Positions 3,997 through 40,320 of a DNA stretch of 64,000 nt are shown piece after piece. The stretch is from Escherichia coli. Its GTDB lineage: Bacteria > Pseudomonadota > Gammaproteobacteria > Enterobacterales > Enterobacteriaceae. The notes beneath the pieces were generated by a model. The model did no database searches, was not told where the DNA came from, and was given only the letters and a program-made list of their open reading frames with translations. Location of the stretch: the NCBI RefSeq assembly GCF_045037415.1, contig NZ_CP173438.1, one strand, 5' to 3'. The position numbers and the translations under genes were made by a program. Numbering within the stretch: position 1 is the first letter of the stretch; the number at the start of each line of letters is the position of its first letter.

Positions 3997-4017
3997 CCGG
4001 CCTGCACTGCAGGCCGG
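3997..4017. terminator. Near-perfect palindrome between convergent flgN and murJ (candidate bidirectional terminator)
   Basis: ccggcctgcactgcaggccgg is a near-perfect inverted repeat between the flgN stop (3987) and murJ stop (4027); no strong T-run on either side, so function is inferred from position. Confidence 0.4.
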
Positions 4018-4026
4018 AATGTATCG

Positions 4027-5649
<1,623 letters not shown>

Positions 5650-9346: not shown

Positions 9347-9994
9347 GTGAAGCTATACATTTACGATCACTGCCCTTACTGCCTCAAAGCCCGCATGATT
9401 TTCGGCCTGAAAAATATCCCCGTCGAATTACATGTTCTGCTCAACGACGACGCAGAAACACCCACCCGGATGGTCGGTCAAAAACAGGTTCCCATTCTGC
9501 AAAAAGATGACAGCCGCTATATGCCAGAAAGCATGGACATCGTTCACTATGTCGATAAACTCGACGGCAAACCGTTACTGACCGGCAAACGTTCCCCTGC
9601 CATTGAAGAGTGGCTGCGCAAGGTCAATGGCTACGCCAACAAACTGCTGTTGCCGCGTTTTGCCAAATCGGCATTTGATGAGTTTTCTACTCCTGCCGCG
9701 CGCAAATATTTCGTCGACAAGAAAGAGGCCAGCGCGGGTAATTTTGCCGACCTGCTGGCCCACTCTGACGGTCTGATTAAGAATATCAGCGATGATTTAC
9801 GTGCGCTGGACAAACTGATCGTCAAACCGAACGCCGTGAATGGCGAACTTTCGGAAGATGATATTCAGCTATTTCCGCTCCTGCGTAATCTGACGCTAGT
9901 AGCCGGAATCAACTGGCCAAGCCGCGTTGCTGATTACCGCGATAATATGGCGAAACAGACACAAATCAATTTGTTATCATCAATGGCGATTTAA
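9347..9994 (+). CDS. grxB: Glutaredoxin 2 GrxB (215 aa); first codon is GTG in this sequence
   Basis: Protein (M)KLYIYDHCPYCLKARMIFGLKNIPVELHVLLNDD... is Grx2 with the CPYC active site; codon at 9347 is GTG, preceded by AGGAG. Confidence 0.9.
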   Translation: MKLYIYDHCPYCLKARMIFGLKNIPVELHVLLNDDAETPTRMVGQKQVPILQKDDSRYMPESMDIVHYVDKLDGKPLLTGKRSPAIEEWLRKVNGYANKLLLPRFAKSAFDEFSTPAARKYFVDKKEASAGNFADLLAHSDGLIKNISDDLRALDKLIVKPNAVNGELSEDDIQLFPLLRNLTLVAGINWPSRVADYRDNMAKQTQINLLSSMAI

Positions 9995-34579: not shown

Positions 34580-35557
<978 letters not shown>

Positions 35558-35751
35558 TTATCGTTATGATCTACAAAGGCCACCAGCATAACAAATCCGT
35601 GGTCGGTGACAAAAAAAGCAAATTTCGCTTATTAAAACTACATATTGATTGAAGTTTGAATAATCGAGCGATTTTTTAAAAAAGTTTGTTGACCTCAGGT
35701 CATGATTTCCCTAAATTAGCGCCCGTTCCAGCAAGACAGGAACGACAATTT

Positions 35752-35839
35752 GGTGAGGTGTCCGAGTGGCTGAAGGAGCACGCCTGGAAAGTGTGTATAC
35801 GGCAACGTATCGGGGGTTCGAATCCCCCCCTCACCGCCA
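35752..35839 (+). tRNA. serX: tRNA-Ser (anticodon GGA)
   Basis: GGTGAGGTGTCCGAGTGGCTGAAGGAGCACGCCTGGAAAGTGTGTATACGGCAACGTATCGGGGGTTCGAATCCCCCCCTCACCGCCA: acceptor stem pairs with the 3' end, long variable arm typical of class II Ser tRNA, GGA anticodon, encoded CCA. Confidence 0.93.
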
Positions 35840-35848
35840 TATTTAAAG

Positions 35849-35880
35849 AAGAGCTCGTACGAAAGTACGAGCTTTTTTTT
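35849..35880 (+). terminator. Rho-independent terminator of serX
   Basis: Hairpin gagctcgtac-gaaa-gtacgagc followed by 8 T. Confidence 0.85.
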
Positions 35881-35943
35881 CGTATATTGCATACACCGGG
35901 GGGATGAGAAGCCCCAGGCGGAGGTTGACAACTAGCGACAGAC

Positions 35944-37311
35944 TCATTCATCATCCTTGCGGTTGATAAGAATTTCTGCCTCTTTTACTACCACCTTATT
36001 ACGCCCGGTCTCTTTCGCCTCGTAAAGTGCGTTATCAGCCAGTTGATAGATCTCCTTAGGGTTTAACTCATTTTTCTGCGTTACAACAGCGCCAATACTA
36101 ATCGTCACTTTTTGTGGTATGGCGTATTCAGGATTATCGCCAGTTAAACGTTCAACATTTTCCCGAATCCTTTCCGCTAAAGCTTTCGCACATTCAGTAT
36201 CGATCTCCGTCAGCAAGACGCCAAACTCTTCGCCGCCAACGCGCGCTAAAAGGTCATCTGGTCGTATGCTTTTCCCAATGATATTCACCACTGTCTTTAT
36301 CACTTGATCGCCAACCGGATGTCCCCAGGTGTCGTTGACTTTTTTGAAGTGGTCAATATCCATAATCATGACGCAATAAGGTGTTTTTTTGGCCGATGCT
36401 GATTGAACCGTCAGTTCATTAAAAAAATAATTTCTGTTGAATATATTGGTTAAGGGATCGCGATGTGCAATGTCCTTTGTTACTCGTAGCGCACTGAATA
36501 TATGGCACATAAAAATTACCAAAACGGTTAACTTACTGACTACTTCAATAGTGCGACTAATATACCAAATGGACACGCTATACCTGCTCATAAATAACAG
36601 AGAGATATTGTACAGCACGGCACAAAAAGCAATCACCGACACCCCGTTCCAGATATCACAGCGTAAACCATTAAAGTATAGATTAACCGAAAGCAAGGTT
36701 AACCACATGAAAATCATTATGGTAACATATGAGGCTTTCCAAACCACCTGACCATTTTCATTGGTTAACTCGGCAATGTGTAAATCGTAGCTCTCATAAT
36801 GGCTAGAAAATATGTGAGCAACTATCGGCCCCCCAAGAACAAAAAACAAACTTATGCACAAAGTCACTTTTTTGGAAAATAAATTGCGCTGTTTTGTGTT
36901 TTCACTAACTTTATTTATCAATGCCAGAAATATTAACATGCACAAACTCATCTGACGAAACAAATAATAAATTGCAATGTCATTTTGAACAACACTGCTT
37001 GTCAAACGCCCCTCAATAATTTGCTGAATGATAATGACGGTTTTAACAAAGTAAATCAAACAACTTAGAAAAGCCAAACTAAGTATACAGTTTGAAAATT
37101 GCCTACGGTCATAAATGAAATACAACTGCATAAAAATAAATGCAACAGTATCGATAAAAAATAAAGCAATCATAACCATCAGATAGGTTGATCGTGGAAC
37201 AACTTCCTCAACGGTTGGCTGATTGAACCAACTATTAACCAAAACCAATGCAAGCCCAAACAATAAGCTCACTAATACAGTACTACTAATTCCCAAATAG
37301 TCTTTTTCCAT
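35944..37311 (-). CDS. dgcT: Membrane-anchored diguanylate cyclase DgcT (YcdT); about 455 aa from this ATG
   Basis: Protein from MEKDYLGISSTVLVSLLFGLALV... has multiple N-terminal TM helices and a C-terminal GGDEF domain (RVGGEEFGVLL); ATG at 37311. The track extension to 37434 starts on TTG right after a stop and was trimmed. Confidence 0.88.
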   Translation of the reverse strand: MEKDYLGISSTVLVSLLFGLALVLVNSWFNQPTVEEVVPRSTYLMVMIALFFIDTVAFIFMQLYFIYDRRQFSNCILSLAFLSCLIYFVKTVIIIQQIIEGRLTSSVVQNDIAIYYLFRQMSLCMLIFLALINKVSENTKQRNLFSKKVTLCISLFFVLGGPIVAHIFSSHYESYDLHIAELTNENGQVVWKASYVTIMIFMWLTLLSVNLYFNGLRCDIWNGVSVIAFCAVLYNISLLFMSRYSVSIWYISRTIEVVSKLTVLVIFMCHIFSALRVTKDIAHRDPLTNIFNRNYFFNELTVQSASAKKTPYCVMIMDIDHFKKVNDTWGHPVGDQVIKTVVNIIGKSIRPDDLLARVGGEEFGVLLTEIDTECAKALAERIRENVERLTGDNPEYAIPQKVTISIGAVVTQKNELNPKEIYQLADNALYEAKETGRNKVVVKEAEILINRKDDE

Positions 37312-37434
37312 AAAGCTACACCAACCTGTAGGTTGTAGATCCCTTTTTATTATTAATAGATATAAGAACTGTACTGTTGTCAATATGAAAATCCACCCAC
37401 AAACAATACCGATGATGATAGTTGCAGAATGCAA

Positions 37435-37896: not shown

Positions 37897-40320
37897 ATGT
37901 ATTCAAGTAGCAGAAAAAGGTGCCCGAAAACCAAATGGGCTTTGAAAATTCTTACTGCTGCATTTTTAGCAGCGAGTCCCGCGGCGAAGAGTGCTGTTAA
38001 TAACGCCTATGATGCATTGATTATTGAAGCTCGCAAAGGAAATACTCAGCCAGCTTTGTCATGGTTTGCACAAAAATCAACACTCAGTAATAACCAAATT
38101 GCTGACTGGTTACAGATTGCCTTATGGGCCGGGCAAGATAAACAGGTTATTACCGTTTACAACCGCTATCGTCATCAGCAATTACCAGCGCGTGGTTATG
38201 CAGCTGTCGCCGTCGCTTATCGTAACCTGCAACAATGGCAAAACTCGCTTACACTGTGGCAAAAGGCGCTCTCTCTGGAGCCGCAAAATAAGGATTATCA
38301 ACGGGGACAAATTTTAACCCTGGCAGATGCGGGTCACTATGATACTGCGCTGTTTAAACTTAAGCAGCTTAAATCTGGAGCACCGGACAAAGCCAATTTA
38401 CTCGCAGAAGCCTATATCTATAAACTGACGGGGCGTTATCAGGATGAATTACGGGCGATGACAGAGTCATTACCTGAAAATGCATCTAAGCAACAATATC
38501 CCACAGAATACGTGCTGGCATTACGTAATAATCAACTAGCTGCCGCGATTGACGATGCCAATTTAACGCCAGATATTCGCGCTGATATTCATGCCGAACT
38601 GGTCAGACTGTCGTTTATGCCTACGCGCAGTGAAAATGAACGTTATGCCATTGCCGATCGCGCCCTCGCCCAATACGCTGCATTAGAAATTCTGTGGCAC
38701 GATAACCCAGACCGCACTGCCCAGTACCAGCGTATTCAGGTTGATCATCTTGGCGCGTTATTAACTCGCGATCGTTATAGAGACGTTATTTCTCACTATC
38801 AGCGTTTAAAAAAGACGGGGCAAATTATTCCGCCCTGGGCGCTATATTGGGTTGCGTCGGCTTATCTCAAAGATCAGCAGCCGAAAAAAGCACAGTCAAT
38901 AATGACCGAGCTCTTTTATAACAAGGAAACCATTGCCACGGATTTATCCGATGAAGAACTTGCGGATCTCTTTTACAGCCACCTGGAGAGTGAAAATTAT
39001 CCCGGCGCGCTAACTGTCACCAAACATACCATTAATACTTCGCCGCCTTTCCTTCGGCTAATGGGCACGCCTACGAGCATCCCGAATGATACCTGGTTAC
39101 AGGGGCATTCGTTTCTCTCAACCGTAGCAAAATATAGTAATGATCTTCCTCAAGCTGAAATAACAACCAGAGAACTTGCTTATAACGCACCAGGAAATCA
39201 GGGACTGCGCATCGATTACGCGAGTGTGTTACAAGCCCGCGGTTGGCCTCGTGCGGCAGAAAATGAATTAAAAAAAGCAGAAGTGATCGAGCCACGTAAT
39301 ATTAATCTGGAGGTTGAACAAGCCTGGACAGCATTAACGTTACAAGAATGGCAGCAGGCAGCTGTCTTAACCCACGATGTTGTCGAACGTGAACCGCAAG
39401 ATCCCGGCGTTGTACGATTAAAACGTGCGGTTGATGTACATAATCTTGCAGAGCTTCGTATCGCTGGCTCAACAGGAATTGATGCCGAAGGTCCAGATAG
39501 TGGCAAACATGATGTCGACTTAACCACCATCGTTTATTCACCACCGCTGAATGATAACTGGCGCGGTTTTGCTGGATTCGGTTATGCCGATGGACAATTT
39601 AGCGAAGGAAAAGGGATTGTTCGCGACTGGCTGGCAGGTGTTGAGTGGCGGTCACGTAATATCTGGCTCGAGGCGGAGTACGCTGAACGCTTTTTCAATC
39701 ATGAGCATAAACCCGGCGCGCGCCTGTCTGGCTGGTATGATTTTAATGATAACTGGCGTATTGGTTCGCAACTGGAACGCCTCTCTCACCGCGTTCCATT
39801 ACGGGCAATGAAAAATGGTGTTACAGGCAACAGCGCACAGGCTTATGTTCGCTGGTATCAAAATGAGCGGCGTAAGTACGGTGTCTCCTGGGCTTTCACT
39901 GATTTTTCCGACAGTAACCAGCGTCATGAAGTCTCAATTGAGGGTCAAGAACGCATCTGGTCTTCACCATATTTGATTGTCGATTTCCTACCCAATCTGT
40001 ATTACGAACAAAATACAGAACACGACACCCCATACTACAACCCTATAAAAATGTTCGATATTGTTCCGGCATTTGAGGCAAGTCATTTGTTATGGCGAAG
40101 CTATGAAAATAGCTGGGAGCAAATATTCAGCGCAGGTGTTGGTGCCTCCTGGCAAAAACATTATGGCACGGATGTCGTCACCCAACTCGGCTACGGGCAA
40201 CGTATTAGCTGGAATGACGTGATTGATGCTGGCGCAACGCTACGCTGGGAAAAACGACCTTATGACGGTGACAGAGAACACAACTTATACGTTGAATTCG
40301 ATATGACATTCAGATTTTAA
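37897..40320 (+). CDS. pgaA: Poly-beta-1,6-N-acetylglucosamine (PGA) outer membrane export porin PgaA (807 aa)
   Basis: Protein MYSSSRKRCPKTKWALKILTAAFLAASPAAKSAVNNAYDALIIEARKGN..., TPR-like N-terminus and beta-barrel C-terminus; ATG at 37897. Confidence 0.95.
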   Translation: MYSSSRKRCPKTKWALKILTAAFLAASPAAKSAVNNAYDALIIEARKGNTQPALSWFAQKSTLSNNQIADWLQIALWAGQDKQVITVYNRYRHQQLPARGYAAVAVAYRNLQQWQNSLTLWQKALSLEPQNKDYQRGQILTLADAGHYDTALFKLKQLKSGAPDKANLLAEAYIYKLTGRYQDELRAMTESLPENASKQQYPTEYVLALRNNQLAAAIDDANLTPDIRADIHAELVRLSFMPTRSENERYAIADRALAQYAALEILWHDNPDRTAQYQRIQVDHLGALLTRDRYRDVISHYQRLKKTGQIIPPWALYWVASAYLKDQQPKKAQSIMTELFYNKETIATDLSDEELADLFYSHLESENYPGALTVTKHTINTSPPFLRLMGTPTSIPNDTWLQGHSFLSTVAKYSNDLPQAEITTRELAYNAPGNQGLRIDYASVLQARGWPRAAENELKKAEVIEPRNINLEVEQAWTALTLQEWQQAAVLTHDVVEREPQDPGVVRLKRAVDVHNLAELRIAGSTGIDAEGPDSGKHDVDLTTIVYSPPLNDNWRGFAGFGYADGQFSEGKGIVRDWLAGVEWRSRNIWLEAEYAERFFNHEHKPGARLSGWYDFNDNWRIGSQLERLSHRVPLRAMKNGVTGNSAQAYVRWYQNERRKYGVSWAFTDFSDSNQRHEVSIEGQERIWSSPYLIVDFLPNLYYEQNTEHDTPYYNPIKMFDIVPAFEASHLLWRSYENSWEQIFSAGVGASWQKHYGTDVVTQLGYGQRISWNDVIDAGATLRWEKRPYDGDREHNLYVEFDMTFRF

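Follow-up and report, generated by a model that had tools for sequence, protein, structure and literature searches.

The locus considered here is the junction between serX and dgcT (ycdT) within a 64-kb stretch of Escherichia coli DNA, in the following referred to as the window. The sole tRNA gene found in it by ARAGORN encodes tRNA-Ser(GGA); this serX is identical to serX of MG1655 and is preceded by a promoter-like sequence at positions 35689-35717, which was identified by consensus match only. Upstream of serX lies the core gene ghrA, while dgcT follows on its other side after a spacer of 104 bp (35840-35943), with pgaA being the next gene and divergent from dgcT (Table 1). The start of ghrA at 35518 (312 aa) was derived from the length of the K-12 protein, within an ORF covering 34580-35557, and the start of dgcT was placed at the ATG corresponding to the K-12 start. 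The spacer contains no gene, and the ORFs overlapping it are mechanical short ones only. Neither an integrase fragment nor an island remnant was detected in it, and a search of the whole window for the terminal repeat of IS3, allowing up to three mismatches, gave no match. A first-pass annotation of this DNA had placed the end of serX at 35839, the end of its terminator at 35880 and the ycdT stop codon at 35944 on the opposite strand, with no ORF, IS end or integrase fragment in between; these coordinates were confirmed and the description of the spacer stands. The interval may be read as the serX terminator hairpin, followed by 61 bp of a truncated repeat and the stop codon of dgcT.

Table 1. 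Features of the serX-dgcT junction and its surroundings (window coordinates).
Feature	Position	Strand	Basis
ghrA (ycdW), core gene flanking serX upstream	34580..35518	-	collinear with annotated ghrA in MG1655 and ST131-like genomes
serX, tRNA-Ser(GGA), intact	35752..35839	+	ARAGORN; Rfam tRNA, 53.8 bits
14-nt attachment core CCCCCTCACCGCCA (serX end) for serX/serW P4-family integrase islands	35826..35839	+	single match
Predicted intrinsic terminator of serX: A-tract, GC-rich hairpin, T8	35845..35880		inverted repeat and fold
RtT-like repeat unit remnant, unit positions 61-121 of 181, cut at the dgcT junction	35881..35941	+	alignment to MG1655 units
48 bp specific to the compact junction: dgcT stop and last 15 codons (tail KEAEILINRKDDE)	35942..35989	-	BLAST breakpoints
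dgcT (ycdT), MASE4-GGDEF diguanylate cyclase, 455 aa from ATG	35944..37311	-	translation compared with MG1655 DgcT
pgaA, first gene of pgaABCD, divergent from dgcT	37897..40320	+	807-aa ORF, collinear with annotated pgaA

Six bases past the end of serX an inverted repeat begins (35845-35860 and 35865-35880), which consists of AAAGAAGAGCTCGTAC and GTACGAGCTTTTTTTT separated by gaaa. Its stem spans 35852-35873 with a GAAA loop and is flanked by a T8 run on the plus strand and by a CTTCTTTAAA tail on the minus strand, and the fold of the 104-nt spacer reaches -38.6 kcal/mol (z = -6.7 versus shuffles). A GC-rich stem-loop is thus immediately followed by a T-run, as is typical of an intrinsic terminator. 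In a consensus scan, the hairpin was recognised as a terminator-like element on the minus strand but not on the plus strand, on which the T8 run was read directly from the sequence. Transcription of serX could start from the promoter-like site mentioned above and would end at the hairpin and its T8 run. Since no other terminator-like structure follows the dgcT stop, serX and dgcT probably share this palindromic hairpin, i.e., it is predicted to act bidirectionally and to end the convergent dgcT transcript as well. A further promoter-like match on the plus strand (35925-35954) points antisense into dgcT and was rejected as a consensus match without other support. For the 61-bp leftover of the repeat, we found no evidence of function in the window.

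The product of dgcT has database relatives carrying PF17158 and PF00990. Its stop codon occupies 35944-35946, at the end of a minus-strand ORF of 35944-37434. The frame remains open upstream of the K-12-equivalent ATG (37312-37434), back to a TTG at 37434, which would yield 496 aa; the lengths of DgcT in database entries vary between 452 and 487 aa, reflecting differences in the start codon chosen. The C-terminus reads ...GRNKVVVKEAEILINRKDDE in the window and ...GRNKVVVRDVVNFCESP in K-12, a difference which arises because the window-type 48 bp hold the stop and the last 15 codons. DgcT variants of 76-99% identity all end in KEAE..(I/L/M)N.KDD(D/E), and the tail RDVVNFCESP was found in the K-12-like DgcT cluster only. 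Two C-terminal tails of DgcT therefore exist, and the junction type of each strain sets which one is made. Apart from this, dgcT is broken by IS1 and partly missing in AVS0193, a genome close to the window (L007 26740-28057), and some further genomes close to it (among H1/H9) carry an IS200/IS605 element within the junction, so that dgcT was inactivated repeatedly in that background.

Compared to MG1655, the window shows about 97% identity with collinear flanks (pgaABCD, dgcT, serX and ghrA). The distance from the dgcT stop to serX, however, amounts to 3,330 bp in MG1655 versus 104 bp in the window, and the RefSeq annotation of MG1655 gives the order dgcT, IS3D (insE4/insF4), ymdE pseudogene, ycdU and serX. 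When the K-12 interval was compared to the window by BLAST, only 35821-35941 was matched, i.e., the repeat unit described below; this search returned neither insE/insF or IS3 as present in MG1655 nor ycdU, ymdE or other genes of the 33-kb segment introduced in the next paragraph. The homology to MG1655 breaks at 35941 on the serX side and at 35990 on the dgcT side, and the 48 bp in between have no counterpart in MG1655 or in the 33-kb segment of strain XH990. serX lies only 104 bases from dgcT because the window is without the extra DNA of K-12 and without the pathogenicity islands that other strains insert at this site. The first-pass annotation had stated that IS3, ymdE and ycdU separate ycdT from serX in K-12, and had concluded from the much shorter spacing that the DNA stems from a lineage other than MG1655. 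The RefSeq gene order and the alignment agree with both statements, the latter also being supported by an identity of 100% over 24 kb to ST131 chromosomes.

The likely source of the K-12 DNA is seen in XH990, in which 33,269 bp lie between serX and dgcT and in which DgcT has the K-12-type tail and the K-12 length. Starting from serX, this segment comprises ycdU, an intact ACP S-malonyltransferase gene (the full-length form of ymdE), a cluster of ketoacyl synthase, ACP, FabZ-like, SDR, ABC-transporter and LolA-like genes and, further on, a two-partner-secretion haemagglutinin, a chaperone-usher fimbrial operon and an EAL-domain gene adjoining dgcT. BLAST of the XH990 segment against the whole 64 kb of the window gave no match. 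In the intact segment (loci L036 409-20738 and L039 300-4788), the fatty-acid-synthase-like cluster ends in ycdU; an assignment as aryl-polyene cluster was considered, but the genes annotated there were no obvious match to it, and the more general designation was kept. The segment is joined 61 bp downstream of serX and inside the last dgcT codons. Its boundary on the serX side is equivalent to position 35900 of the window, and the partial last repeat of K-12 stops at the same point. In both K-12 and O104:H4, the same IS3 lies ten bases past dgcT and ymdE is truncated in the same way; both can therefore be regarded as carrying an IS3-truncated remnant of the large segment, in agreement with Goldstone et al., 2016 (PMC4951805). 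As judged from these alignments, the extra DNA of K-12 is a remnant of the ~33-kb segment and no tRNA-integrated island, since the segment lacks an integrase as well as the 14-nt core at its ends, and one of these ends lies inside dgcT.

Downstream of serX, MG1655 furthermore carries 3.4 tandem copies of a 181-bp unit, each of which has the final ~19 nt of the tRNA at its end, so that the tRNA 3' end occurs three more times in K-12. Positions 35821-35941 of the window align with each of the MG1655 units at 92-97% identity and correspond to the first 121 nt of the unit, with the homology starting inside serX. The window holds no full unit, as the terminal one is truncated and fused to dgcT, with ~58-61 nt being left past the terminator. 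These units resemble the Rfam family RtT (RF00391; gathering score 45), for which two MG1655 units score 46.3 and a unit of the divergent lineage L009 scores 46.9, and such units are annotated as "RtT sRNA" by PGAP in many genomes. Between 35000 and 36500 of the window, RtT gave no match at E <= 1 because the terminal unit is too short, and the tRNA was the only credible Rfam match in this range. Sub-threshold matches to MicC, Thr_leader, STnc320 and a plastid UTR (same range and E-value), all of them due to the T-arm of the tRNA or to the hairpin, were rejected, and so was sX4 at 35741-35909 with 33.7 bits versus a gathering score of 70. This weak sX4 match occurs because the T-arm of serX (35812-35829, GGGGGTTCGAATCCCCCC) and a hairpin of the remnant (35898-35915, GGGGGGATGAGAAGCCCC) are complementary (83%); this complementarity suggests that a degenerate tRNA-like arm forms part of the repeat unit.

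Strains differ in how many full units they have: the window has none, B7A two and K-12 3.4, and as many as 11 matching places occur in a single genome (repeat loci: L001 8962-9584, i.e., MG1655 1096961-1097583; L004 9281-9700; L009 11380-11760); L009 also contains a shortened 109-bp variant of the unit. On the terminal unit, different downstream modules are fused at different points, namely dgcT-pga at position 121, DUF2726-phoH at ~102 and the 33-kb ycdU segment at 80 (fusion loci: L004 ~9660-9700, L005 ~9360-9375, L006 ~9340, equivalent to 35900-35941 of the window), and the number of full repeats upstream varies independently of the fusion point, from 0 to at least 3. It is conceivable, albeit rather unlikely, that the RtT-like repeat represents a recombination hotspot that anchors alternative downstream modules. 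Should the repeat itself promote such exchanges, accessory DNA would have a second route of entry at serX that does not depend on the integrase.

The other candidate entry point is serX itself. No second copy of the attachment core was found in the 64-kb window with up to two mismatches allowed, the sole match being the one in serX, and the tRNA 3' end GGTTCGAATCC has one exact match in the window, again inside serX. A match to GGTTCGAATCC with one mismatch at 35015, inside ghrA, is within chance expectation and was rejected as an attachment scar. As the 14-nt core is present only once, the serX site is unoccupied and free of scars. This is what the first-pass annotation had proposed in calling the window an unoccupied version of the junction, and the direct repeat of the tRNA 3' end, which it had suggested to search for as a trace of a recent excision, does not occur beyond serX. 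As a test for scars, such a repeat is misleading, as the additional tRNA 3' ends of K-12 are, according to the unit alignment, tandem RtT-like units and no attachment scars. Copies of the tRNA 3' end past serX should therefore not be read as island scars in K-12-like strains. Conversely, a precise integrase-mediated excision leaves no scar.

The further remark that ser tRNA genes are recurrent integration sites fits well with P4-type integrase islands found at serX in other genomes, flanked by the 14-nt core. In 02E060, island DNA with CP4-like cbtA/yeeU starts right after the CCA-proximal end of serX, whereas the integrase end was read in a different genome, FDAARGOS_1295. Here, an island of more than 50 kb with sfa fimbriae and iro salmochelin genes adjoins dgcT, and the tyrosine integrase gene is followed by CCCCCTCACCGCCA and then by the window-type terminator, repeat remnant and dgcT tail (98.5% over 130 bp). 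O104:H4 carries an integrase island with iha at serX. In the more usual layout of such islands, the integrase gene is located next to the intact tRNA gene. At L003 4638-6014 and L038 21180-22752, the integrase is located at the end with the displaced 14 nt, on the dgcT or ycdU side and away from the intact tRNA. Islands listed for serX in the literature include PAI-serX of CFT073, UTI89 and RS218, OI-48 and the SRL PAI (PMC7545054, PMC3064760). By analogy, the 3' end of serX in the window is a candidate attB for P4-family integrases, and the empty serX site of ST131 could in principle receive e.g., the SRL resistance island or a ter/iha island.

Regarding its lineage, positions 30000-54000 of the window are 100% identical to O25b:H4-ST131 chromosomes, including EC958, JJ1886, JJ1887 and many others, most of which match in one unbroken alignment, and the junction marks the window as ST131-like. 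In a set of 5,426 complete E. coli genomes, the compact type, defined as at least 80% of a 601-bp junction query in one place with joined alignment pieces allowed, was present in 1,149 (21%), a few of which have an IS or one to two additional repeats within the junction (H1, H9). In the same set, ycdU was present in 2,663 genomes (49%) and at least one full repeat-unit spacer in 3,362 (62%), at 1 to 11 places per genome. Strains B7A and JX21CE35 are devoid of pga-dgcT, and their serX is followed by a DUF2726 gene and phoH; variable presence of the pga genes and their neighbours in phylogroup A is described in PMC4951805.

The window junction (...GCGACAG / A...dgcT tail) and the alternative DgcT tail recur in four other settings. 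One is the lineage L009, filed as E. coli with 83-90% nucleotide identity, which is collinear over csg-ghrA-serX-dgcT-pga, has two extra repeat units and is the only clearly divergent chromosomal outgroup recovered. A second E. coli lineage, L040, shows 95.6% identity and the same gene order over 8 kb, and its ghrA-dgcT gap measures 423 bp versus 425 bp in the window. The junction is also found on plasmid-like pga-dgcT contigs (L041, L042), which are homologous to the window from 35871 on, and at the far end of the sfa/iro island integrated at serX, on its dgcT side. L009, L040, L041/L042 and L003 all have the 48 bp. Since these 48 bp have no counterpart in K-12 or XH990 and the junction appears in four other settings, the compact form is most likely ancestral and the K-12 form derived. 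We therefore regard the interval, with high though not full confidence, as the native and unoccupied serX-dgcT junction of the ST131 lineage. The polarity was inferred by parsimony from a small set of lineages and not from a tree, and the compact allele may have moved from one lineage to another by recombination.

Lineages were collected in two ways. A contig scan with DgcT returned one close relative, the other 26 loci being unrelated GGDEF proteins or a 214-base fragment, and further lineages were obtained via the protein database and contig look-ups. Locus L043 (63% identity in DgcT) was discarded as junction evidence, as it has a CadC-like gene instead of serX downstream and its homology stops before the dgcT tail. 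Contigs L041 and L042 are filed under Salmonella enterica, with pgaAB-dgcT being ~91% identical to the window (dgcT at 4001-5464); they also encode TraG_N, Rep3_N and a phage-type integrase, which makes them look like a plasmid-borne copy, and by retaining the sequence from 35871 on they keep half of the serX terminator together with the repeat remnant.

The opposite polarity would imply that the ancestor of ST131 possessed the 33-kb ycdU segment, or a K-12-like remnant of it, and lost this DNA by deletion. Such a scenario would match the known instability of the region, including the variable pga genes and neighbours reported in PMC4951805, the lack of pga-dgcT in B7A and JX21CE35 and the presence of ycdU in 49% of genomes. 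A simple deletion of the segment, however, cannot yield the compact form because the 48 bp at 35942-35989 are absent from the segments of K-12 and XH990, and unit positions 81-121 are likewise absent from the 33-kb form at this place. The identical junction and DgcT tail in the 83-90% lineage, the 95.6% lineage and the plasmid-like contigs also speak against it, so that a derived origin of the compact junction is largely refuted and appears highly improbable. Even less weight can be given to an assembly artefact, in which the 181-bp tandem repeats or an island would have been collapsed or dropped. Tandem repeats of this kind are present at the locus in other strains and could collapse in short-read assemblies, but at least 40 complete RefSeq chromosomes among the matches listed, including EC958 and JJ1886, are 100% identical over 24 kb in one unbroken alignment that spans the junction, by which an artefact is ruled out for practical purposes.

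A further option is that a recent B2 ancestor carried a PAI-serX-like island which was emptied by precise integrase excision, restoring the attachment site. Other B2 strains do carry such islands, as PAI-serX of 62-113 kb is described for CFT073, UTI89, RS218, IHE3034 and UM146 (PMC7545054), and the island of FDAARGOS_1295 adjoins the same compact junction. The SRL PAI and OI-43/48 are documented to excise precisely between their 14-bp repeats in an int-dependent manner (PMC3064760, PMC7545054). Nothing in the sequence requires such an event, however, given the single core copy and the lack of an island remnant or integrase fragment, although a precise excision is traceless and would be indistinguishable from a site that was never occupied. 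Altogether, we consider a recently emptied island unlikely, and a native, unoccupied junction remains the preferred reading.

On the K-12 side, three steps may be proposed, in an order that we infer from the comparison of present-day junctions. At first, the ~33-kb segment (ycdU, the fatty-acid-synthase-like cluster, haemagglutinin, fimbriae and EAL gene) would have been inserted, replacing 89 bp including the DgcT tail. An IS3-associated deletion could then have left only ymdE' and ycdU, and the 181-bp repeat might finally have been amplified to 3.4 copies.

The compact junction is an ordinary, known allele of a well-known variable locus. Heterogeneity from pgaD to ycdU and the IS3-truncated ymdE are already published (PMC4951805, PMC5635171), and so are the serX islands with their 14-bp repeats (PMC7545054, PMC3064760), while the tandem repeats are routinely annotated. 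Added here are the breakpoints at base level, the alternative DgcT tail, outgroup evidence on the polarity and the caution concerning repeats and scars in K-12. Beyond correct annotation the importance is small; K-12, however, most likely represents the derived state at this locus.

One of the closest known systems is the MG1655 interval, which agrees with the window in its flanking genes, in the terminator of serX and in nucleotides 1-121 of the repeat unit, and differs from it by IS3D, ymdE', ycdU, the 3.4 repeat copies and a DgcT tail of RDVVNFCESP instead of KEAEILINRKDDE. The same locus is the variable pgaD-to-ycdU region, or genome island between phoH and ghrA, of Goldstone et al., 2016 (PMC4951805) and Cimdins et al., 2017 (PMC5635171), where strains differ in their content of ycdT, pga, IS3, ymdE and ycdU; the passages devoted to it contain no base-level breakpoints, alternative DgcT tail or outgroup comparison. 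RtT (RF00391) comprises tandem repeats past tyrT, each ending in a tRNA 3' end, and its gathering score is reached by the serX units of K-12, B7A and L009, although these follow serX and not tyrT and the window has only a truncated remnant. Finally, the window shares the intact tRNA-Ser(GGA) gene and the 14-nt core with the SRL PAI of Shigella, OI-43/OI-48 (SpLE1) of O157:H7 and PAI-serX, and unlike these serX/serW islands it has no island, integrase or second copy of the core. In OI-43/OI-48 and the SRL PAI, the identical 14-bp direct repeats correspond to the last 14 bp of serW or serX (PMC3064760), and in occupied genomes, the stretch behind the displaced copy of the 14 nt is exactly the one that lies past serX in the window (PMC3064760, PMC7545054).
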